NCBI GenBank assembly: GCA_965226375.1
Contig: CBDDCX010000008.1
Coordinates: forward strand, 2,112,001-2,176,000
DNA length: 64,000 nucleotides
From: Longimicrobiales bacterium
Lineage (GTDB): Bacteria > Gemmatimonadota > Gemmatimonadetes > Longimicrobiales > Gaopeijiaceae
Direction: 5' to 3'
The notes beneath the pieces are model-generated. The model was not told where the DNA came from, made no database searches, and saw only the letters and a program-made list of their open reading frames with translations. Both the position numbers and the translations under genes were made by a program. This document shows positions 462-57,803 of the stretch, piece by piece (within the stretch, counting starts at the first letter, position 1; each line of letters opens with the position of its first letter).

Positions 462-2143
462 CCGACGAGGCTCCCCCCTCGCCGGCTCCTGCCGCCGGAC
501 ACGTGAACGTCGGAGCATACCTCCCGGAAATGGCGCTTACGCAGCCCGACGCGCTGGCCGTCGCGGTGGCCGCGGGCAGGAATCCGGATGGTACGGGACG
601 TTACGCCGAGCTGACGGCAGCCGAGCTCAATCGGCGCTCCGATCGCATCGCCCACGCCCTGGTGGACATCGGCATCGGCGAAGGAGTTCGCACGGTACTC
701 ATGGTCAAGCCCAGTCTCGAGTTCTTCGCCCTCACCTTCGCCATGCTAAAGATCGGGGCCATTCCCGTCATGGTCGATCCGGGGATGGGCACCAAGAACC
801 TGGGACGATGCCTCGCGGACGCGGAGCCAGAGGCCTTCATCGGTATCCCGAAGGCTCACGCCGCGCGCGTGGTGCTCGGCTGGGCCAAACGGACGCTCAA
901 GATCAAAGTCACGGTAGGTCGCCGCCTATTCTGGGGCGGACACTCCCTTGCAGCCCTGGAGGCCCAAGCGCCGGCGCACTCTTTTCCGACCCTGGATCCC
1001 GATCCGGAACAGACCGCAGCGATTCTATTCACCAGCGGAAGCACAGGGGTTCCCAAAGGCGTAGTGACACCCTTCCGGGTGTTCTCCGCCCAGGTCGACG
1101 CACTTCGCGACGTGTACGGAATCGAGCCCGGCGAGCGCGATCTCGCGACCTTGCCACTCTTCGCCCTCTTCGGCCCCGCGCTGGGAATGGCCTCCGTGGT
1201 ACCCGACATGGACGCCAGCCGACCGGGAGCGTCAGACCCGGCGCTACTCTTCCAGGCGTTCCGTGACTTCGAGTGCACCAACCTCTTCGCCTCGCCGGCG
1301 CTCATCGACAAGCTGGGTTCGTACTGTGACGATCAGGGTCTCGAGCTGACCTCTCTGCGCCGTGCGATCTCTGCGGGCGCCCCGGCGTCGAATCCAGCCT
1401 TGGAAACGTTCCAACGGTGCCTTCCGGAAGGCGCCGAGGTTCTCACGTCGTACGGAGCCACGGAGTCGTTGCCTGTATCGTACCTCGGGAGCCAGACCAT
1501 CCTCCGAGAGACTCGGCACCTCACGGACCGGGGTGCGGGCGTCTGCGTCGGCATGCCGGTGCCCGGCATCGAGGTGCGGATCCTGCCCATCCACGAGGAA
1601 CCCATCGAGCGCTGGTCGAACGACCTCGTTCTTCCCACCGGCGAGATCGGTGAGATCGCCGTACGTGGCCCCGTGGTGACGCCGTCGTACTTCAACCAGC
1701 CTGAGGCCACCAGACTCGCGAAGATCACTTCGCCCGACGGAGGCGTGTGGCACCGAATGGGTGACGTGGGCTACTTCGACGGCAGTGGCCGCCTGTGGAT
1801 GTGCGGCCGAAAGGGCCATCGGGTGGAGACGGTCAACGGCACCCTCTTCACCATCCCGTGTGAGGCTGTCTTCAACGTCCATCCTTCGGTGCGCCGGAGC
1901 GCACTGGTGGGTGTGCCACAGGAAGGCGCCACTGCGCCCGTCCTATGTGTGGAGAGAGAGCCCGCCACAGCCCACGACCAAGATCTCCTCACCGAGGAAC
2001 TCCTCGCCATCGCTCAGCAACATGAGCACACCCGCCAGATCGAACTCGTGCTCTTCCACGCTTCCTTCCCGATGGACGTGCGCCACAACGCGAAGATTTT
2101 CCGGGAGAAACTGGCGGAGTGGGCCAAGGAGAAGCTGGCGTGA
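458..2143 (+). CDS. oleC: OleC-like beta-lactone synthetase (AMP-dependent ligase)
   Basis: Motifs ILFTSGSTGVPKG, YGATESLP, HRMGDVGY and the C-terminal DVRHNAKIFREKLA. Lies between oleB-like and oleD-like genes. Confidence 0.85.
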   Translation: MTDEAPPSPAPAAGHVNVGAYLPEMALTQPDALAVAVAAGRNPDGTGRYAELTAAELNRRSDRIAHALVDIGIGEGVRTVLMVKPSLEFFALTFAMLKIGAIPVMVDPGMGTKNLGRCLADAEPEAFIGIPKAHAARVVLGWAKRTLKIKVTVGRRLFWGGHSLAALEAQAPAHSFPTLDPDPEQTAAILFTSGSTGVPKGVVTPFRVFSAQVDALRDVYGIEPGERDLATLPLFALFGPALGMASVVPDMDASRPGASDPALLFQAFRDFECTNLFASPALIDKLGSYCDDQGLELTSLRRAISAGAPASNPALETFQRCLPEGAEVLTSYGATESLPVSYLGSQTILRETRHLTDRGAGVCVGMPVPGIEVRILPIHEEPIERWSNDLVLPTGEIGEIAVRGPVVTPSYFNQPEATRLAKITSPDGGVWHRMGDVGYFDGSGRLWMCGRKGHRVETVNGTLFTIPCEAVFNVHPSVRRSALVGVPQEGATAPVLCVEREPATAHDQDLLTEELLAIAQQHEHTRQIELVLFHASFPMDVRHNAKIFREKLAEWAKEKLA

Positions 2144-2210
2144 CGTCACAAAGATGCTCGTGCACGACCCGTCGAGATGCTCCGCCGACAGGACGCGCGG
2201 GGGTGCTGAA

Positions 2211-3230
2211 GTGAGGGCGTTGGTCACCGGTGCGGGCGGCTTCCTCGGGGGCGCGATCGCACGGACGTTGAGGGAGCGGGGTGACCATGTCCGCGGCTTC
2301 TCGCGGGGTATTCATCCCGAGCTGGCGGCGCACGGCGTCGAGCAGCTGAGAGGCAACGTGGCCGATCCGGACGCCGTGATCGAGGCCACTCGGGGTGTGG
2401 ATATCGTCTTCCACGTCGCCGCAAAGGTGGCTGCGGGTGGGGCTCGCAAAGACTTCTACGACACCAACGTGACGGGGACGGAGAACGCCATCGCCGCCTG
2501 CCGGGAATGCGGGGTGGGCGCCCTGGTCTACACGTCGACCCCGAGTGTCACGTTCGGGAAGACGGACCTCGAAGGAGTGGACGAATCGATCGGATACGCC
2601 AACCACTTCGAGGCCTTGTACGGTGAGACCAAAGCGGAAGCAGAGCGTCGTGTCCTCGCCGCCGCCTCGGTCAGCTTCCGAACCATCGCTCTGAGACCTC
2701 ATCTGATCTGGGGCCCAGGTGATACGTCCGTCCTACCTCGCATCGTGGAGCGGGCACTCAAGGGTCAACTCCGCCGCATCGACGGCCCGCCCAAGCGCTC
2801 GGACCATGTATACGTCGACGACGCGGTCCGGGCGCATTTGCTCGCCGCCGACCGGCTCCTCGCCGGCGGGGCGGCGGCCTCACGGATCAGTGGGCAGCCC
2901 TACTTCATCACCGCGGGCGAGCCAGTCGAGATCTGGACCTTCTTGAACGGCCTCCTTCACGCCGCGGGTGTGCCTCCTGTAGAGAAGCGCGTTTCGTATC
3001 GGGCCGCCATGGCCGCAGGATGGGTGTTCGAGAAGCTGCACGCTCTGTCCGGGAGCAAGGGCGACCCGCGCATGAGTCGGTGGATCGTCAGGGAACTCAC
3101 CACATCGCACTGGTTCGATATCAGCGCGGCCCGCCGAGACCTCGGCTACGAGCCGCAGGTGCTCATGGAGGAGGGGATGAGGCACCTCGCGGCCTGGGTG
3201 GAAGATCATGGCGGAGTGCCGGGTGTCTGA
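2211..3230 (+). CDS. oleD: OleD-like NAD(P)-dependent 2-alkyl-3-oxoalkanoate reductase (extended SDR / 3-beta-HSD family)
   Basis: GTG start giving MRALVTGAGGFLGG, plus YTSTPSV, catalytic YGETK and LRPHLIWGPGD. The ORF-track start at 1761 lies inside oleC. Confidence 0.8.
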   Translation: MRALVTGAGGFLGGAIARTLRERGDHVRGFSRGIHPELAAHGVEQLRGNVADPDAVIEATRGVDIVFHVAAKVAAGGARKDFYDTNVTGTENAIAACRECGVGALVYTSTPSVTFGKTDLEGVDESIGYANHFEALYGETKAEAERRVLAAASVSFRTIALRPHLIWGPGDTSVLPRIVERALKGQLRRIDGPPKRSDHVYVDDAVRAHLLAADRLLAGGAAASRISGQPYFITAGEPVEIWTFLNGLLHAAGVPPVEKRVSYRAAMAAGWVFEKLHALSGSKGDPRMSRWIVRELTTSHWFDISAARRDLGYEPQVLMEEGMRHLAAWVEDHGGVPGV

Positions 3231-3954
3231 GGAGGGAGCGCGGGCCCAAGATTGGAGACCCGCTTCGGAATGGACACCACCCGTCGGAGACGTCATCGAC
3301 GTGTGGCGTTTGGATCTGAGCGTTACGGACGAGGACTGGGCCCTTCTGAGCCCGGACGAGTCGGAGCGCGCCAACCGCATCGTCGTGGAGGTCAAGCGGG
3401 ATCAGAAGGCATCCGGTAGAGCGCACTTGAGGCGCATCCTGTCGCTCTACGTCGATATCGGTGCTAGCGACCTGCGCTTCGAGTACGGCGAACACGGTAA
3501 ACCCGGCCTACCCGAGCACACCGATCTGAGCTTCAACCTCTCCCACTCGGAGAAGGTCGGCCTGGTCGCAGTGACCTATGGAACGCGCATCGGGGTCGAC
3601 GTCGAGCATGCGCGTGAAGGACGGGACTTCGTGGGCCTGGCACGCCGCTTCTTCTCCACGGTGGAGAGCGACGCCTTGATGGAGCTTACCGAACCGGAGC
3701 GGCTGGCAGCTTTCTACCGCGCGTGGACCCACAAGGAAGCCTACCTCAAGGCACTGGGGACGGGTCTGAGCTTCCCGTCGAACGGCTTCACCATCGACCA
3801 TACCGCTAAGGGTGGAGGACGCGTGGTGAGCACCGACATGCCCGGGGACGACCCCGGGGCCTGGCGCTTCACCCACGTTGAGCTCAGCTCCGCTTTCGCG
3901 GGGGCAGTCTGCTTCGACGGACGAAATCGACTCATTCGGTGGTGGGGGGGCTGA
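3208..3954 (+). CDS. Sfp-type 4'-phosphopantetheinyl transferase
   Basis: Motifs HGKP, FNLSHS, IGVDVE and WTHKEAYLKALG. Confidence 0.9.
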   Translation: MAECRVSEEGARAQDWRPASEWTPPVGDVIDVWRLDLSVTDEDWALLSPDESERANRIVVEVKRDQKASGRAHLRRILSLYVDIGASDLRFEYGEHGKPGLPEHTDLSFNLSHSEKVGLVAVTYGTRIGVDVEHAREGRDFVGLARRFFSTVESDALMELTEPERLAAFYRAWTHKEAYLKALGTGLSFPSNGFTIDHTAKGGGRVVSTDMPGDDPGAWRFTHVELSSAFAGAVCFDGRNRLIRWWGG

Positions 3955-3967
3955 GCGGCACCGGCCC

Positions 3968-4608
3968 TTAGTCCCCCTTCAACGCCACCATCGGATCCAC
4001 GCGGCTCGCCCTGAGCGCCGGCACCACCGCAGCCAAGAGTGCGGTCGCCCCGATAACGCCGCCCACCGCAATAAGAGTGAGCGGGTCCGACCCGTTCACT
4101 CCGAACAGCAGGCCCCCCATGGCACGGGTGGTCAGCACGCCCAGTCCGATTCCCACTCCCCCGCCCACGAGCGCCAAGACGGCGCTCTCGCTCACGACGC
4201 CCCGCAGAACCTCCTCGGAGCTCGCGCCCAGCGCTTTGCGCAGACCGATCTCCGGCACGCGCTGACTCACCGAAATGGAGAGCACGCCGTATACGCCCAC
4301 GCACGCCAGACAAATCGCGATGATCCCGAAGATCTGGAGCAACGCCCGTGCGAAGCGCTCGGTAGCGAGGGACGTCGCCACGATCGATTCCATGGTCTTC
4401 ACCCGTGACATCGGCACCGTCGGATCCATCTCACTCAGGACTCGGCGGGCTACGGGCATGGCGTCGAGCGGATCTCCCCCCTCGGTGAGCATCGCGATAT
4501 ACATCCCCCCCGGAGTCGAGTAGGCAGACGTCAGCGACTGCTTGTACGGCATGTACATCCGGGGCACAGGCTCAGCCGCGATCCGCTGTTCCTTCACGTC
4601 GGGGATAG
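3968..4608 (-). pseudogene. C-terminal fragment of an ADOP-type ABC permease (FtsX domain)
   Basis: GVYGVLSISVSQRVPEIGLRKALGA ... RASRVDPMVALKGD. Similarity ends abruptly upstream of DVKEQ near 4605. Confidence 0.8.
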
Positions 4609-4722
4609 GTAAGTTGCACAAGGTTGGAAGGATGTGTTTGCGTGCACCGGCGCGGCACAGACCGACCCTGTGGAGGTGTTCCGGACGAACTAGCCGCAAG
4701 GAAGCCGCCACGAGTTACAGGC

Positions 4723-4757
4723 AAAGAAGAAGCCCCCGGGCGTGACAGCCGGGGGCT
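4723..4757 (-). terminator. Rho-independent terminator
   Basis: On the minus strand AGCCCCCGG-N9-CCGGGGGCT is followed by TCTTCTTT, about 50 nt after the stop of 4808-5707. Confidence 0.75.
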
Positions 4758-4807
4758 CTCCTAAGCCTGCCGGTGCGATCGGCGCCGGCCTGATCTCCGG
4801 GGAGGGC

Positions 4808-5707
4808 CTAGTCGGCCAGCGGCTGCATGTTCCCGACCTCCCAATGGATCTGCCAGCTTCCGTCTTCGGCCTGTTTGCAGAGAAGCAGGAACGACCCGAC
4901 CGCGAGCGGATCACCGCCCTCGGACGCGTCCACCTGGAACCACCCTCCATCCAGGGCCCACCCCTCTGCGAGGGGAATCGTAGCGACGTCATGGATCGTG
5001 AGGTGAGCGCCGGGGCTCTCGGCCAGGAACTCCTCCAAATAAGCGGTAACCGCCTCGCGGCCTACCGTGATCGGACTGTCACCGCTGGACGTGATGGCGT
5101 CGTCGGTATAGTAGCCCGCCGCCACTGAGGCGTGGCCCATGTTGAAGTGAGTTGCCAACCCACCCAACATGTCCGTCATCGTGCCCTCGTCTTCAGGGGC
5201 ATCCTCTCCGTCCCCCACCACATAGGCCCAGCCCTCGGGGCGAGGAGAGTCATAGTTGGTAACCACCAGGTTGATCTTCCAATCACCCGACTCCTTGGTG
5301 AACGAGGTCAGATACGCGCCCGTGATGGTCATGGGATCCGCACCCTCGGGGGTGGTCTCGACCGAGTAGGAACCCAGGGCGACCGCCAGGCCGTCGAAGA
5401 CCATCATCTCCTCCCCGGTGAGCGATATGTTCGGGGACCCGGCCATCTGAGTCTCGAGAGAGGCCGTGTTGTCCTCCCGCCCCATGACGACTGCGCCGTC
5501 GGCATTTAGCGTGACAACCTCGTCCGTGTAGTAACCGGCCACTACCGACGCATGATGCATGTTGTAGTGTTGCGCCCAGCCCTCGCGAAGCTCGACGAGC
5601 TGTTCCTCGTCCGTCATTTCGGCTGCGGCAGGCGCCTCTTCAGCGTCGCCACCACACGAGATGAAGAGCATGGCCGTGAGCGCGGTCATGAGAGTGCGGG
5701 TCTTCAT
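4808..5707 (-). CDS. Lipoprotein with tandem NTF2-like (SnoaL/DUF4440) domains
   Basis: GGAGG RBS before MKTRTLM, lipobox FISC, and two internal repeats HYNMHHASVVAGYYTDE / HFNMGHASVAAGYYTDD. Confidence 0.75.
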   Translation of the reverse strand: MKTRTLMTALTAMLFISCGGDAEEAPAAAEMTDEEQLVELREGWAQHYNMHHASVVAGYYTDEVVTLNADGAVVMGREDNTASLETQMAGSPNISLTGEEMMVFDGLAVALGSYSVETTPEGADPMTITGAYLTSFTKESGDWKINLVVTNYDSPRPEGWAYVVGDGEDAPEDEGTMTDMLGGLATHFNMGHASVAAGYYTDDAITSSGDSPITVGREAVTAYLEEFLAESPGAHLTIHDVATIPLAEGWALDGGWFQVDASEGGDPLAVGSFLLLCKQAEDGSWQIHWEVGNMQPLAD

Positions 5708-5885
5708 GGTGTACCTCCGACGGATGGTGCGGGATGCAGGTATGCCGCGGGCACGTAGAGTGGGGGCTTTACAAGGGTCCGTCAAATGCCGAGTGACGCT
5801 ATCACCACCGGCTTTCGACCGCGCGGAGTCCCCGACTCACACGGAGCCACCCCACCGGGTCAAAGCCACCTGCCGAAACACCGCT

Positions 5886-49963: not shown

Positions 49964-50755
49964 CTACGCTGGCTCCGCCTTCTCGGCGGTCATCAGAACC
50001 GCCTTCACGCCGTAAGCCTCGCCCGAGTTTTGCGTGGATTCCTTCCGGAAACGGAAGTTGGGAACCACAGCAGATTTCACCCGACTGAACCCGGACTCCT
50101 CCAGAAGCCTGAACATCTCTCCTTCCAGGAGAGCTCCTCCGATTCACGACGCCCAGAGCTTGGGATCATTGACGATATCCTGGGAGAGTTGTTTGCCGCT
50201 GACGATGTCGGTGATCGAGATGCGTCCGCCAGGCTTGAGAACGTGAAACATCTCCTCTATCACCCTGCGCTTTCGGAACGACAGGTTGATGACGCCGTTG
50301 GAGATCACTACGTCCACCGACTCATCAGGTAGCGGAATGTCCTCCATTCTGCCCTCGTGGCACTCCATTTCCGTGCCCGTGGCGGCGGCGTGTGCCTGAG
50401 CCTTGAGGCACATGGACGGGTTGAGATCGACACCGATGACCTTCCCGGTGGGTCCGGTACTCCATGAGGAGATGATGGAGTCGAGCCCCGCTCCGCTCCC
50501 CAGGTCCAGCACGGTCTCGCCCGCCTGGACGTTGCTACGCAGGTGCGGGTTGCCGACACCTGCAAAGGAGGAGACGGCCCCGGAAGGCGCGCGGTCTAAC
50601 CATTCGCTAGGGTAGCCGAAGAGCTCTGCGGCCTGACGGCCGTGGAAGAAATGGAACTCGCCGTCGGGGTTATCGGCCACATCCTCATACATGCGGACGA
50701 TCTCATCCTTGAGAAACTCCTCGAGCGAGGCTTGGGCTTCTGCGGCATCTGACAT
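49964..50755 (-). CDS. Probable selenoprotein: ArsM-like SAM-dependent methyltransferase (Sec204, TGA 50144-50146)
   Basis: VLDLGSGAGLD and VDVVISNGVIN. Read-through gives PKLWAS-U-IGGALLE... to a TAG at 49964, 1 nt before the next ATG. A SECIS-like hairpin follows the TGA. Confidence 0.85.
50117..50133 (-). promoter_or_regulatory. Bacterial SECIS-like hairpin
   Basis: Minus strand CTCTCCT-GGA-AGGAGAG, with the loop G 17 nt after the TGA. Confidence 0.65.
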
Positions 50756-50851
50756 GTAGTCTCTCCCCTGGCAAACACGCCTCGCCGCCGTATGCGGCTC
50801 ACGCCACCCTACGTCGCCATACTGGACCGAGCAAGATACCGGCGCGCGGGC

Positions 50852-52333
50852 TCAATTGGCTACCGGAAGCCCACTGGGCACGCGCTGGGGGACCAGATGA
50901 CTGAGGCTCCGCACTGAGGGGTCCGTGAGGCTCTCCAGGAAGGCCACGATATCGTCGACGTCCTGATCGGATAGAGAGACCGGAGCCAGTTCGTTGGCCT
51001 GGGCAATACGTCCGCGCAGCACCGTTCGAGTCTGGACCCAATCGTCACGCATCAAGAAGGCCCGGAGCCGATACTCGTTCAGCCACCTCTGGCTCACCCT
51101 CGAGCCTACGGCTGTGAGCTCGAGCACCCCCTCCAGTGGGGGGAGCAGACTCCGGTCGAACTTGTAGGACTCCAGCGCCGTTACGGGATCGGCATGGTGC
51201 CGCACGACGGCCTCGAGTGTCTGGTACGCCCCGTCGTGACCCCAGGGGCCGGTGACACCCACATTGCGCAAAGACGGGGTGCGGAATTTGAAATCGTCCT
51301 TCGGACGCTCGGTGACTCCCCCGCGTCCCAGGTCCTCCGGGAACGCCTTCTCCCCCGTCACCGCCCAGTAGCCGGTGTCGCCTCGGTCCGACTTACCCGG
51401 ACCGATCTGGGGCATGCCGATGGCGTGGAAGCCGTGGTCGGTCTGGAACTTGCCCGAATGGCAACTGCCGCAGCCGGCTCTCCCGTAGAAGAGGTCGGCC
51501 CCGCGCTCAGCGCTCCGGCTGAGAGCGCCTACCTGACCGCGCTGGAAGCGGTCGAAGGGACTCTCGTCGGCTCGAAACGCACTGGTCTCGAAAGCCGCGA
51601 TGGCGTTGGCCGCCAGTACGTAATTGACTTCTGCCGCAACGTTCACCCGCGCGGGGAACGCGCGCCGAAACAGTTCGACATACTCCGGGATGCCCTGCAA
51701 ACGCTCCCCGAGTTGCGCCCAAACACCGTCTGGGCCGGCCATGTTCTTACGCGAAGCCGCGTCAGCGATGGAGTTCTCACCGTCTTGGCCGGCCATCTCG
51801 GTCGCTGACACAACGGGGAACATGGCTTGCGCTGCAAGTACGTTGTCGAGTCCCTTGGGGAGCCTCCACCTGGCAGGCGTGATGAATCCACCCTCGTACT
51901 GCCCCTCCGGGTCCGTCTCGACCCGTCCATCGTGGAACAGCCTGGTGAACTCCTCCGCACCCACGTTGAACAGAGCGGACGAGTTTCTGGGCACCCGACC
52001 GTGGACACCGGTGGCCTTTTCTGATCCCGCACGGCGTTCGGGTCCCAGCCCTTGCGCGCCTTCACCCAGTCCTAGGACAAGCCCGTCTGTGGTTCCGAGG
52101 TCGGGGTGATGGCACGTAGCGCAGGCGATGTTGCGATTGCCACTCAGGATCTTATCGAAGAAGAGCACGCGTCCCAGCTCGACCTTTGCCGGGGAAGGCG
52201 CTCCTCCGTGGTAGTAATCGCCGTCGACTACGGCGGCGCGTAGCAGTGGCGGCGGGGCAGCGCTGTCCACCGTTCCATGATGCGACACCATAACGGCGGG
52301 GGCCACCAACAATACTCCTACCAAGGACTTCAT
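50852..52333 (-). CDS. Di-heme cytochrome c peroxidase / MauG superfamily protein
   Basis: ELGRVLFFDKILS, CATCH, CGSCH, FRTPSLRNV, HDG, IVAFLESLTD, and a signal-like N-terminus. Confidence 0.88.
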   Translation of the reverse strand: MKSLVGVLLVAPAVMVSHHGTVDSAAPPPLLRAAVVDGDYYHGGAPSPAKVELGRVLFFDKILSGNRNIACATCHHPDLGTTDGLVLGLGEGAQGLGPERRAGSEKATGVHGRVPRNSSALFNVGAEEFTRLFHDGRVETDPEGQYEGGFITPARWRLPKGLDNVLAAQAMFPVVSATEMAGQDGENSIADAASRKNMAGPDGVWAQLGERLQGIPEYVELFRRAFPARVNVAAEVNYVLAANAIAAFETSAFRADESPFDRFQRGQVGALSRSAERGADLFYGRAGCGSCHSGKFQTDHGFHAIGMPQIGPGKSDRGDTGYWAVTGEKAFPEDLGRGGVTERPKDDFKFRTPSLRNVGVTGPWGHDGAYQTLEAVVRHHADPVTALESYKFDRSLLPPLEGVLELTAVGSRVSQRWLNEYRLRAFLMRDDWVQTRTVLRGRIAQANELAPVSLSDQDVDDIVAFLESLTDPSVRSLSHLVPQRVPSGLPVAN

Positions 52334-52511
52334 TTCATCCCTCTCCTGGCCCGATCGGGCCGGCGGGCTGCCCGGCTTACCCTTGGTCACACGCCAGACC
52401 TCACCGGAGCCAGCCACCGGGTCAATGTAGATGGCATGTCACGGGAGATCCATGTCGGGGGGGATCTATATCGGGCGAGTTCAGGTTGCGGAAGTGGTCC
52501 CAGTCCGGGCT

Positions 52512-55236
52512 CTAGTCCGCCGAAAGCGCCCGGACCGGATCTACACGGCTGGCGCGTAGCGACGGCATCAGGGATCCCAGAATCGCCACGCCGAACAAGG
52601 TGAGCGTGGCTGAAACAAAGGTCCGGGGATCGTGCGTCGAGACCCCGAAGACCAGGCTGGCCAGCAAGCGAGTGCCCAACAGGGCAAGGAGAAGTCCGAC
52701 CGCGAGGCCCATGCAGGTCTGGCCCAGTCCCTGTCCCAGAGTCATGCGGATCACGGCCCCGCGGCTGGCTCCCAAGGCCAGGCGAACGCCGATTTCGCGG
52801 GTCCGGGCGGTGACCGCCTGCGCGCTCACTCCGTAGATACCGATGGCGCTCCATGTCACTGCGATCACGGTGAAGAGGCTCAGAAGTAAGAGGTTGAACC
52901 TGGGTCGAGCCACCGAATCCGAGAGAATGGCCTCGCCCGTGCGAATCGCCTCCAGAGGTTGGTCCGGGTTCACCTCGAGTACCGCACTCTGCAATAGAGT
53001 AGCGAGCTCTTCCGGAGGTCCCGACGTACGCACGACCACTACCATCTCCTGCATCGTGACCTGGCCGTACGGGCGATAAAGGTACGGCTCGGGGATGGTG
53101 GCGAGACTGCTTCCTCGAATATCCGAGAGGAGCCCCACGACCCGGTAGCGGGTCCCCGGATCGTCGGGCCTGCCGGAAAACATGGTACGCCCTACAGGGT
53201 CCTGTCCCGGCCACAACTGACTCGCCAACGCCTCATTGATCACCGCAACCGCGTCATCCACCGAGGCGTCATCCCGCGAAAAACCGCGGCCCGGAAGCAA
53301 CGTCATTCCCATCATCTGGAAATAGGTCGGCGTCGCCACCCGGAAACGAACGTCGTCGACGAATCCGTCCTGCCCACCGGCGCCCTCCCGATGCAGGAGC
53401 GTGCCTCCACCCCGATTGCCACTCAAAGGGAAGACGGATACGGCGCCCGCGGCCGTCACGCCGGGGAGTGCGCCCAACACCGGCAGAAGCTCCTCGAAAA
53501 ACTGGGTACGACTCTCACGGTCCGGGAAGCTGGCAGAGGCGAGGTTGAGCTCGGCCGTGAGAACGTTGTCGGTGCGAAAGCCCGGGTCGACTCCGGACAG
53601 CCGTACAAGGGTCTGGAGCAGGAGCCCCGCACCGATGAGAAGGACCAAAGCCAGGGCCGAACTCGGAAGCCACTAGCCCCCCCCTCACGTGCCGCCCTGC
53701 CCTGCCCATGCTTACTCGAGAAGAGCCGCGCGCCAGCGCACCCATCACGCTGGAGCCAGACACGACGAGCTCGGGGACCAACGCGGCCAGCAGTGCGGTA
53801 AAGGCGGTCAACCCGAGGGCGAATCCGACCGCCGCCCGGTCCATCCGGATCGTATCCATTCTCGGAAAGTTCAGTGGCCCCAACGTCGACAGGGCCTCCA
53901 CCCCGAGGGAAGCGAGTACCAGCCCGAGGCCCGCTCCCAGCGTTCCCGCCACAAGACTCTCGATCGTGACGAGCCTGGCAATCTGGAGGCGACTCGCTCC
54001 GTGGGCGGCACGAACCGCCACCTCCCTCGTTCGGTCGAGGACGCGAGCCACTCCGAGGTTGGCGATATTCGCAGCGGCTACCAACCAGAGAAGGAGCACC
54101 GCGGCCATCAAGGCCGAAAGCGCCGGCCGGACGTCACCTACGGTCTGCTCGAGAAGTCCCACCACACGCATTCCCTCACCCCCGTTGCTCTCCGGGTACT
54201 CCTCGGCCAGGCTTCGGCCCAAAGCGGCCACTTCCAGCTGGGCGTCGCCCACGGTCACGCCTGGCTTGATGCGTCCGAGGACTTGCAGGAGATGATTTCT
54301 CCGGCTGTCGCGCCAGCTCTGGAACAAAGGAAGTGGGCGCCACACCCGAGCCCCACTACCGACCGGGAACTCGAAGCCCGGCGGCATGATCCCTACTACG
54401 GTGTGCGGTGTTCCGTTCAGCTGGAGGACACGGCCGAGAATGTCCGGATCGGCACCGAAGCGGATCGACCATTCCTCATGGCTCAAGATCACCTTCTGCT
54501 GATTGCCGGGTTCATTCTCTTCGGGGATGAATGAGCGTCCCAGGGTAGGCTCGACCCCGAGCAAGGCAAGGAGGTTGGCTGTGATCATGGCGCCGGGAAT
54601 CCGCTCCGGTCTGTCTCCACCCGTGAGCGTGACGCTTGGAAAATCACCGAACATCCAGGCGCCGAGGTCGGTGAATGATCCGGTCCGTTGGCGGGCGGAC
54701 TCCATGTTGGGGATGGAGAAGGGCAGATCGGGTCGGGCGTCACGGGTCTCCCAGACCTGCACCAACTCCTCGGGAGAGTCGAACGGCAGGGGCCGAAGCA
54801 GGACGTGGCGAAACGCACTGAAGACGGCCGTGGTGGCGCCGACGCCCATCGCGAACGTGAGCACCACCGTCGTCGTGAAGCCCACCCGCCGTCTCAGGGT
54901 CCGGAGCGCGTATCGAGTCTCACTGATTATCGCAGCTATCGTGTCACCTCCCCGCCTCCCGGTAATGCCACCTCGTCGGTAGTCGATCGATTCTCCGTGA
55001 ACCAGTGTAGAGCTTGTCTTGCGCGGTGATGCCGCGGTGAGCGCGAGATCTGCGAGGGACCGCAGCCAGAAGACTACGACGGGCACGACGCCGCCCCGGC
55101 CCTGCGCCTGGCGAAGACCGTCCCTAAAGACCTCGACCATCTCGGTCTCGGCCTCCAGCCGGAACCGCTTCGTAAGGAGCCGTAACAGGAGGCGATAGGC
55201 CCGCTCCGAACGGCCCGGTCCACCGCGCCCCGTCAC
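52512..55236 (-). CDS. ADOP-type permease with prefix domain, single-base frameshift ~53657
   Basis: ORFs 53515-55236 and 52512-53648 join as LVASEF/ALALVLLIGAG when one G is removed. The GTG start overlaps the padR stop. Confidence 0.8.
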
Positions 55237-55565
55237 TGAGGGCCACCCTCCGGTACCAGCTCAGAGGCCTCCGCCGCGGACAGCACCTTTCTGAGTCGCG
55301 CGGACTCCGCCACAACGACCTGAAGGCCGAGGCTCGTCAGGCGATGATACTGGCGGCGCTCATCCGAATCCTTCTGATCGGCAGGTGGATCCACCCTCTC
55401 GATAACCTCCTGCTCGCGCATCTCCTTGAGCAGGCGGTACAGGGTGCCGGGCCCTACGATGGCGCCGCCGTCCAACTGCTGGTTCACGTGCTCCATGATG
55501 CCGAAGCCGTGGCGAGCCTCACCTCGAAGACTCAGGAGCACCGCGAAGTGCACAGGCTTAATCAT
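55233..55565 (-). CDS. PadR-family regulator
   Basis: HGFGIM, GPGTLYRLLKEM, RRQYHRLT. Confidence 0.9.
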   Translation of the reverse strand: MIKPVHFAVLLSLRGEARHGFGIMEHVNQQLDGGAIVGPGTLYRLLKEMREQEVIERVDPPADQKDSDERRQYHRLTSLGLQVVVAESARLRKVLSAAEASELVPEGGPQ

Positions 55566-55583
55566 GATGTTCTCGCCGTAGAA

Positions 55584-55618
55584 ATCTTCAATTCCGAAGT
55601 ATATTCGATATTGAAGAT
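55584..55618. promoter_or_regulatory. Putative PadR operator
   Basis: ATCTTCAAT...ATTGAAGAT inverted repeat made of two TTC-N6-GAA boxes 17 bp apart, 19 nt upstream of the padR ATG. Confidence 0.65.
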
Positions 55619-55633
55619 ACCTGTCCGGGCACC

Positions 55634-55861
55634 ATGGACTCGAAGGCGTCCGGCAACGCCTTCGTCCAGTACAACTCGACCACGCGCCAAGTCGACTTCA
55701 ACGTTCGGATGCGCTACAACTTTTCAGAAGGAACGGATCTCTGGATCGTCTATAATGAGGGGCTCAACACCGAACGATCCCTCGATCCGGGACAACCCAC
55801 GCCGCCGCTCTCCTTGTCACGCGCCATCATCGTGAAGTACTCGTATACGTTCCACCGCTGA
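55634..55861 (+). pseudogene. C-terminal fragment of an outer-membrane beta-barrel-like protein
   Basis: Alternating aromatic beta-strand pattern NAFVQYNS...NVRMRYNF...IVKYSYTF. No room for an N-terminus. Confidence 0.5.
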
Positions 55862-55886: not shown

Positions 55887-56573
55887 ATGTCCGTGAACGA
55901 CCTCCGTCCCATGAAGCCCACCGACTGGAGGGTGCGGGCCGAGCTGTACCAACAATTCATCCAGGGCACCGGGCCGCCCTCGCACGTCTCCCTCGCGGCC
56001 GCCGTGGAGATGGATGAAGAGGAAATCGAAGAATGCCTATCCACATTGGCCGGACATCACCTGATCACGCTAAAGGGTGACGCCGGCTTTATCTGGATGG
56101 TCCATCCTTTCTCCGCCGTGCCGACCGCGTACCCGGTGGAGACACTGTTGGGCCTGTTCTGGGCGAACTGTGCATGGGACATACTCGGTATCCCCTCCCT
56201 GCTCGGTGTGGACGCCACCACGCGGAGCAGATGCGCCGAAAGCGCGCAGGATCTGGAGTTGGGTGTGTTCAAGGGTGACGCCTGGGGGGAGGGATGCGTT
56301 CACTTCCTGGTCCCACCCCGGGACTCCTGGAACGACATCGGTTTCACGTGAGCCACCATCCTCCTCTTCCGGTCGGAAGACGATGTGGATCGCTGGTGTG
56401 AGCGCAGGTCTCTCGAGAAGGGCGGAGTGATGAGTGTAGACCAATGCTGGCAGGTGGCTAGGGAGTGGTACGGTGGACGCGAAAAGGCAGACTGGCGGCC
56501 CAAGTCCTCTGAAGAGGCCGAGAGGATCTTTCGGGCGGCCGGCCTTGAAGGACCCCACTGGCGCTTCAGCTAG
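55887..56573 (+). CDS. Probable selenoprotein: MerB-like (alkylmercury lyase fold) protein (Sec155, TGA 56349-56351)
   Basis: N-terminal HTH, HPFSAVPT, WANCAWD. Read-through gives WNDIGFT-U-ATILLFRSE...EWY, in frame with ORF 56385-56573. A SECIS-like hairpin follows. Confidence 0.8.
56353..56388 (+). promoter_or_regulatory. Bacterial SECIS-like hairpin
   Basis: Upper stem TCTTCC-GGTC-GGAAGA (56365-56380) and lower stem CCAC.ATC/GAT.GTGG, with the loop 19 nt after the TGA. Confidence 0.7.
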
Positions 56574-56633
56574 CAGCCGTCCGATCTTCTCTGCGACCCT
56601 GTGAGCGGACGACCCAGCCCGATCGGCAAAGAC

Positions 56634-57803
56634 ATGGCACGAGATTCGGACGAACGAACCCCAGACGACGAGTTGGCCGACGCCACCGTGTTGGCGCAGG
56701 CCGGACAGGCTGTTGACCCGACGACCGGCGCGTTGGTACCGCCCTTACATATGGCGACCACGTTCGGGCGCGACGCCGAAAACAAACTGATCGGCGACTA
56801 CCTCTACTCCCGCTACCAGAACCCCACCGTCGTGCACGCGGAGCAACTGCTGGCCGGGCTCGAAGGAGGAGCCGGGGCCATGCTGTTCGCGTCCGGGCTG
56901 GCCGCGGTGGCAGCCGTGTTCGAGACGGTCGAGAGCGGCAGGCACGTGGTCGCTCCCACCATCATGTATCACGGCGCCCAGGACTGGCTCCACCGGATCG
57001 AGAGTCGCAGGGGCATCGACCTCTCTCTGTTCGACGCCACCGACCCTGACGCGCTGGGTCAGGCACTGAGAGACGGTGCTACTTCGATCGTCTGGATCGA
57101 GACGCCCGTCAATCCGACCTGGGACATCATCGACATCCGGGTGGCGGCCGACCTCGCGCACGAGGCTGGCGCGATCCTGGCAGTGGACAGCACGGTCGCA
57201 TCGCCCATCACCACCCGGCCCCTCGAGCTCGGTGCCGACCTCGTGTTCCATTCGGCCACAAAGTACATGAACGGGCACTCCGACGTCTTGGCGGGTGTCC
57301 TCATTACTCCAGAGGTGGACGAGTTGTGGGAGGAGCTCCAAACGATCCGCAGACTGAGCGGCGGAGTGTTGGGCGCCCACGACGCCTGGATGCTCATACG
57401 CGGCCTGCGGACGCTACCCCTTCGCTTCGAGCGCGCCTCACGGAGCGCGCTTGAAATCGCCCGTCATCTGGAGGGGCACCCGGGCCTGGAAGCCGTGCTC
57501 TACCCGGGACTCGAGAGCCACCCCGGCCACGAGGTGGCGCGGCGACAGATGACCGACGGGTTCGGAGCGCTGATGTCGATCCTGGTGAAAGGCGGCGCGG
57601 AAGAGGCCTTGGCCGTGACGGGCCGACTCCGTGTCTTCGTGCGGGCTACGTCGCTGGGCGGCGTGGAGAGCCTCGTGGAGCATCGTGCAACCGTGGAGGG
57701 TCCCCATAGCCAGGTGCCTCCCAACCTGGTGCGGCTCTCGATCGGCATCGAGGATCCGGCGGACCTGATCGCCGACCTCGACCGGGCGTTGGCGGGGGAC
57801 TGA
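56634..57803 (+). CDS. Cystathionine gamma-synthase/lyase family PLP enzyme
   Basis: YSRYQNPT, FASGLAA, ETPVNP, HSATKYMNGHSD, TSLGGVESL, RLSIGIED. Confidence 0.9.
   Translation: MARDSDERTPDDELADATVLAQAGQAVDPTTGALVPPLHMATTFGRDAENKLIGDYLYSRYQNPTVVHAEQLLAGLEGGAGAMLFASGLAAVAAVFETVESGRHVVAPTIMYHGAQDWLHRIESRRGIDLSLFDATDPDALGQALRDGATSIVWIETPVNPTWDIIDIRVAADLAHEAGAILAVDSTVASPITTRPLELGADLVFHSATKYMNGHSDVLAGVLITPEVDELWEELQTIRRLSGGVLGAHDAWMLIRGLRTLPLRFERASRSALEIARHLEGHPGLEAVLYPGLESHPGHEVARRQMTDGFGALMSILVKGGAEEALAVTGRLRVFVRATSLGGVESLVEHRATVEGPHSQVPPNLVRLSIGIEDPADLIADLDRALAGD

Follow-up and report, generated by a model that had tools for sequence, protein, structure and literature searches.

The locus raises the question of whether two same-frame ORFs separated by a single TGA belong to one gene in which that TGA encodes selenocysteine (Sec), and what such a gene would do. 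The first-pass annotation of the window (the whole stretch of DNA analysed, 64,000 nucleotides) had proposed read-through to a 228-aa protein with Sec at the equivalent of Cys159 of the organomercurial lyase MerB. Frame and translation confirmed this layout: the gene runs from ATG 55887 to TAG 56571-56573, with 154 codons ahead of one in-frame TGA at codon 155, and the read-through product carries WANCAWD at residues 92-98 and the motif FT-U-ATILLF (Table 1). Once the TGA is read through, the whole Pfam MerB domain is complete (80.7 bits against a gathering cut-off of 27, model positions 1-126 of 126), and alignment to solved structures placed C95, D98, C116 and U155 on MerB C96, D99, C117 and C159. 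The codon itself, which the annotation had left to be checked in reads, was spanned by contigs of 4/4 runs from four studies, with no other letter at that position; this agreement, together with TGA in 117 of 119 related loci, indicates that the TGA is no sequencing error.

Table 1. Features of the MerB-like locus in window coordinates
Feature	Position	Strand	Remarks
MerB-like gene	55887..56573	+	228 aa when the TGA is decoded as Sec (U155); PF03243 match
MerB-like protein regions			N-terminal winged-helix part, MerB catalytic domain, ~30-aa C-terminal extension
C95-x-x-D98	56169..56180	+	Aligned to MerB C96/D99; C and D in 44/44 representative TGA forms
In-frame TGA, predicted Sec155	56349..56351	+	Aligned to MerB C159
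Predicted SECIS	56365..56380	+	6-bp stem 56365-70/56375-80, GGUC loop 56371-74
Cystathionine gamma-lyase/synthase-family PLP enzyme	56634..57803	+	Longest ORF from GTG 56601; PF01053, E 8.6e-111

We then compared the Cys159 column across relatives. The 119 loci comprised the window, 38 genome loci and 80 metagenome loci that were left after removal of 5 duplicates and of 2 loci with canonical MerB, and the two without TGA carried TGC; the metagenome loci were chosen by TGA-form patterns and best score, so that this sample leans to TGA. TGA occupied the column in 4/4 loci on genome contigs and, among 61 related genomes, in 7/7 other full-length relatives. Of 301 Actinomycetota genomes sampled independently, 34 had a match, and 25 of the 30 loci read had TGA and 5 had Cys. 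In the sample of the host's own phylum, a full-length copy with one TGA was present in 32 of 301 genomes (host included), the Cys159 column itself being read for 30 of these 32. A single-TGA MerB-like gene was accordingly found in about a tenth of the sampled genomes of two phyla, and the TGA-type family as a whole occurs in Gemmatimonadota-type and Actinomycetota genomes and in many metagenomes. C95, D98 and the TGA were jointly invariant in the 44 representative TGA forms. Two weak one-TGA matches were rejected, one (G259) because its TGA is the genuine stop of a canonical MerB and the other (G228) because it is a separate protein with two TGAs. A profile search returned 3,437 clusters (90% identity) at E<=1e-20 among 8,000 scored, which is a lower bound, and among the best 150 representatives (50% identity) 62 end at residue 154, 77 have Cys, 2 have Trp and 9 have another residue. 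Three NCBI records of 150-161 aa, cut at the UGA, bear the name 'organomercurial lyase'.

The predicted SECIS element was assessed by its conservation, because the fold of the single sequence was nothing special (82 nt after the UGA, z = 0.02). The annotation had placed the start of a hairpin 19 nt past the UGA; the GGUC loop does start there, but the stem does not. The E. coli fdhF SECIS has a similar GGUC-type loop at a similar spacing from its UGA. In 108 distinct sequences the stem pairs held in 91-108 and the GGUC loop in 88, and codon choice within the hairpin departed strongly from that elsewhere in the same genes (Arg CGG in 86/96 vs 0.34; Ser TCG in 94/101 vs 0.29; Glu GAA in 87/107 vs 0.35; Leu CTC in 49/49 vs 0.38). 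The closing pair was C-G in 93 of these sequences and A-U in 6, the latter through two synonymous changes. Across 66 of the 108, 95.2% of stem cells were paired with 16 double changes; none of 500 shuffles scored as high and all slid controls were lower, a shuffle test that kinship among the sequences inflates. Constraint on synonymous codons in the predicted SECIS is strong and compensatory changes occur there; the hairpin is absent from the five Actinomycetota Cys forms. A loose TGA-plus-hairpin pattern applied genome-wide fitted 2,510 of 110,345 TGA triplets and lacked the specificity needed to catalogue the selenoproteome.

The Sec machinery for which the annotation had suggested a search is all in the host genome (G000, 90% complete), namely selA, selB, selD (itself with a TGA) and tRNA-Sec. 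In its phylum, selA was present in 32/32 TGA carriers vs 243/301 genomes overall, and in Actinomycetota in 27/29 carriers vs 205/301; the background frequency is high (68-81%) and related genomes are not independent. These background tallies include five genomes flagged as unpublished (G210, G349, G396, G436 and G468), none of which is a carrier. The two selA-negative carriers have selB (G519) or tRNA-Sec (G575), which brings Sec machinery to 61/61 sampled TGA-carrying genomes. Cys forms were found both in genomes that lack selA/selB (G252, G189) and in genomes that have Sec machinery (G318, G192 and four of the five in Actinomycetota). These sequence data indicate that the two ORFs are very likely a single intact gene in which the TGA is recoded to selenocysteine; placement of Sec at the Cys159 equivalent is strongly supported by the structure alignment, the column counts, the conserved hairpin and the sel genes.

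Structural comparison pointed to the same family. The AlphaFold model (pLDDT 96.1, pTM 0.92) gave 11 Foldseek matches at E<=0.001, all MerB or MerB2, and VIA-align against 48,161 chains reached Z>=5 only for MerB2 (Z 18.5, with 190 residues aligned at rmsd 3.1) and MerB (Z 14.6), with the third-ranked structure at Z 4.5. No NCBIfam model had a cut-off that the protein passes. A quick tree with 114 rows grouped the 108 TGA and Cys relatives together, apart from five canonical MerB (support 96-99) and separated from them by a long branch; the ~30-aa C-terminal extension is kept in this subfamily. Many branches of the tree hold TGA forms, and in at least two starred clades Cys forms are nested within these. 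Sec may have come first in the subfamily, with repeated later replacement by Cys; the quick tree, which has an open backbone and no SaoL row, is compatible with ancestral Sec and with repeated gain alike. Judged by sequence, the window protein belongs to a large, uncatalogued MerB subfamily and very probably contains Sec. Many Cys relatives (P0027, P0033, P0043 and others) have three Cys in the arrangement CxxC...C, not CxxD...U, and one Cys branch (P0029, P0038, P0109, P0111 and P0230) has proteins of ~313 aa, of which at least P0230 carries an HTH of LuxR type. The replacement of CxxD by CxxC is a hint of different chemistry in the wider subfamily.

A precedent for Sec at the Cys159 position is SaoL (NF040728; Haft and Gwadz, bioRxiv 10.1101/2022.07.06.499078), a MerB-like organometallic lyase selenoprotein which, in the available part of its description, is rare and comes from anaerobes. 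The first-pass annotation, whose MerB-like Sec protein is strongly supported, had left SaoL unnamed. Common to SaoL and the window protein are the PF03243 fold, the CxxD motif, Sec (predicted here) at that position and database entries truncated at the UGA, and in both the function is predicted. The window subfamily is nevertheless separate and far commoner. The window protein scores 30.9 bits against the NF040728 cut-off of 140 (best E 1.7e-14 among 23 aligned relatives), and where SaoL has C-U its subfamily has T-U (T in 44/44 representatives), an HPFS motif of its own and a C-terminal W-Y..R..GL..FW extension. The nine-gene SAO neighbourhood is absent at the window locus, where a PadR gene, ABC permeases and the PLP enzyme are found instead; a SaoC search of the host genome gave no match, and the controls likewise gave none. 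Canonical MerB (EC 4.99.1.2; NF033555, NF009710; PDB 1S6L, 3F0O) and Bacillus MerB2 (PDB 5C17) have the same fold, and Cys96, Asp99 and Cys117 of MerB are kept. The window protein differs from them by TGA (predicted Sec) for Cys159, by ~20% identity and by scores of 28.5 and 40.2 bits against the NF033555 and NF009710 cut-offs of 200 and 193, and its subfamily lies outside mer operons, mostly without MerA.

A further likeness is to the MerB homologues of MerA-less genomes surveyed by Christakis et al. (PMC8261052), which, according to the available part of that paper, are also stand-alone MerB-family genes of putative activity. As described there, the survey required Cys at 159, so that it would have excluded members truncated at the TGA. 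We did not find the subfamily in the accessible portions of the 2022 and 2026 selenoprotein reviews (PMC9312934, PMC13188914), where the sole MerB entry of the latter is SaoL, and the two MerB-type entries in the portion of deep-Sep at hand (PMC12013277) are both C-U and SaoL-type. A word search of PMC13745706 and bioRxiv 10.64898/2026.04.03.716425 returned no mention of MerB. Within the accessible parts of the open literature, the BSepDB paper (PMC13326102) included and subscription papers being outside the scope, SaoL was the sole MerB-like selenoprotein found.

We also looked for mer genes around the lyase gene. As the annotation had noted for merR, merA and merT, none was nearby: no mer gene occurred among 7 ORFs scanned in 48-64 kb of the window, and mer-operon queries of the 90% complete host genome detected no merT/merP and no true merA. 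Its best MerA-like match scored 387.6 bits against a cut-off of 454.45 and had no C-terminal Cys pair. MerA, MerR, MerT and HMA queries taken from real mer operons (G117, G142 and G188) had no match in the further 142 TGA loci, which total 610 kb with a median of 3.7 kb per locus, and MerA above cut-off was found in 2/32 carrier genomes vs 31/301 overall, with five candidates scored per genome. The neighbours of TGA loci are lineage-specific housekeeping genes (DmpA peptidase, UbiA and CoA transferase; RpoD and RNase H; GNATs). Neither a mer gene nor a recurring metalloid-resistance set appeared among the 131 neighbour ORFs, of 234 clusters, that were scanned against Pfam, the remainder being covered by targeted tblastn only.

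With moderate confidence we propose that the protein is a stand-alone Sec-dependent organometal lyase, predicted to cleave soft-metal-carbon bonds. Organomercurials would be its likeliest substrates; they are the only proven substrate class in the available parts of the literature considered. SelB would almost certainly bind the hairpin and insert Sec155. From alignment and fold, Cys95 and Sec155 are predicted to bind the metal of R-M+ and Asp98 to relay the proton that releases R-H, both as in MerB. In the MerB model as given in the accessible part of PMC10114901, Cys159 donates the proton; a selenolate would not, and the proton source would therefore have to differ. The weakest step is the last, in which the bound metal ion, without MerA, might pass to cell thiols or sulfide. 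Alternatively, turnover might be slow and the protein partly a trap, because a metal-Se bond is tighter than a metal-S bond. Several observations count against the lyase reading, namely scores far below the canonical MerB cut-offs, the rarity of MerA in carriers and the lack of linked mer genes, as does the expectation, voiced in the portion of PMC8261052 at hand, that MerB without Hg(II) removal is harmful to cells.

Among the other readings, the most improbable is that the TGA is a true stop, reflecting a pseudogene, a sequencing error or a two-gene split. Database products are indeed 154 aa long (113 of the best 120 profile-search matches), a 62-aa downstream ORF exists (P0047), and decayed copies of the family occur, including one with an extra TGA, two in all (L141, in G306), and a remnant in G001. 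However, both the 119-locus and the Actinomycetota sets have TGA as the sole stop triplet in the column, never TAA or TAG, the sequence is conserved both before and after it (30-49% identity), and 72 of 108 sequences have no ATG/GTG/TTG within 7 codons 3' of it; the SECIS-type constraint and the agreement of contigs from four studies weigh on the same side. We also consider it very unlikely that the lyase and the PLP enzyme form an organo-S/Se pathway, as the annotation had suggested, or that H2S made by the PLP enzyme precipitates released metal. The next gene does belong to the cystathionine gamma-synthase/lyase family named there: the enzyme is below every NCBIfam cut-off shown, and its nearest solved structures are cystathionine gamma-lyase-like (E 1.8e-94). 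Its probable start (ATG, as in L053 and L180) lies on the same strand 60 nt past the lyase stop, and a promoter and terminator scan of the + strand found nothing, with no terminator-like site between the two genes. The order is repeated in L053 (lyase 81% identical) and, as a remnant comprising the last 20 lyase codons, in G001 (L180, 1377-1436). Yet L053 is the only one of the 142 other TGA loci with this arrangement (L055 has a weak convergent PLP-gene fragment), the PLP gene persists (85-89% identical) in both congeners, which have lost the lyase, none of 8 other relatives with a MerB-family match matches the PLP enzyme at E<=1e-100, and the host genome has three further PF01053 genes. Given this single recurrence and the congeners, the pairing is local synteny, and conserved linkage and a joint action on organo-S/Se substrates, both raised by the annotation, are not supported. 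The PLP enzyme is likely a local neighbour, no required partner, and the lyase gene is dispensable in the host genus. In L053 the N-terminus of the lyase is frameshifted or clipped.

Two further readings accept a real selenoprotein. One, which we regard as improbable, is a selenoenzyme whose substrate is some other organometalloid (methyl-arsenic, antimony or tellurium) or an as yet unknown natural metabolite. It is consistent with a Sec-type arsenite-methyltransferase-like gene 5 kb upstream here and near the PLP gene in congeners, with lineage-stable housekeeping neighbours of the kind expected for a vertically kept gene, and with a TerB gene near the lyase in one group of 4 loci. Against it, an ArsM orthologue was found in none of the 142 other loci, which had one distant methyltransferase, and no metalloid-resistance set recurred among the scanned neighbours. 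An ArsM partnership was rejected, not being conserved in those loci. The other, less improbable and still unlikely, is a non-catalytic or single-turnover soft-metal binder (a scavenger, chaperone or sensor of Hg, Cu, As(III) and the like). Such a role would fit the lack of linked MerA and transporters, the three-Cys site frequent in Cys relatives, the Cys branch fused to a LuxR-type HTH, the copper chaperone NosL among weak fold neighbours (Z 4.5, under the trusted range) and the binding of Cu(II) by MerB D99S reported in the available part of PMC10114901. It is opposed by Asp98, the proton relay of MerB, which was kept in 116/116 covering TGA loci, a sample partly selected by search pattern, and in 25/25 Actinomycetota TGA loci found without that pattern.

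Returning to the organometal lyase, it is possible, though we hold it doubtful, that ordinary bacteria of soil, sediment and marine habitats use a very widespread, annotation-invisible selenoenzyme to demethylate methylmercury in the absence of MerA. If so, accounts of how microbes degrade methylmercury would lack a large component, one filtered out by merB surveys. If the subfamily cleaves C-Hg bonds, environmental merB counts miss a large pool, and the role of MerB without MerA can be tested on a single small protein that nature provides as a Sec/Cys pair; otherwise the MerB fold has a new job. Across phyla, the subfamily hairpin also offers a clean model of a strongly conserved bacterial SECIS.

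Other Sec candidates were observed along the way. The arsenite-methyltransferase-like gene of the window (49964-50755, - strand) has a TGA at 50144-50146 (LWAS-TGA-IGGAL) and is a second hidden selenoprotein candidate, 263 aa on read-through; its ArsM-family scores rise and stay below cut-offs, and Sec-containing ArsM-like proteins are a known kind. Both congeners keep its TGA, and there the gene is directly divergent from the PLP gene. Between it and the lyase (~50800-55800) lie a di-haem cytochrome c peroxidase-like gene, an ABC permease, whose ORFs 52512-53648 and 53515-55236 are possibly one frameshifted gene, and the PadR gene, a block absent from the corresponding place in both congeners. 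The separate protein of G228 (L137, 3918-4571, + strand) is also MerB-like and distinct from the lyase: TGA occupies both catalytic columns (YGA-U-GID and DDF-U-RNS), and a CUUCU-GGUC-AGAAG hairpin comes after the second. The protein sits on a long branch in the quick tree and had no NCBIfam match at 1e-20. A MerA/dihydrolipoamide-dehydrogenase-like flavoprotein in L138 (G188, 3855-5189, + strand) and L139 (G202, 4415-5767, - strand) lacks the C-terminal Cys pair and has TGA where the first redox Cys would stand (GGT-U-VNEGC). It adjoins a canonical-type merB, in L138 together with merR-, merT- and HMA-like ORFs, and is a candidate Sec disulfide or metal reductase inside a mer-like cluster, a type not seen in the accessible part of the 2026 selenoprotein table. 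Finally, contig C2 of the host genome carries an array of 17 tRNAs in ~2.2 kb (1703-3908).
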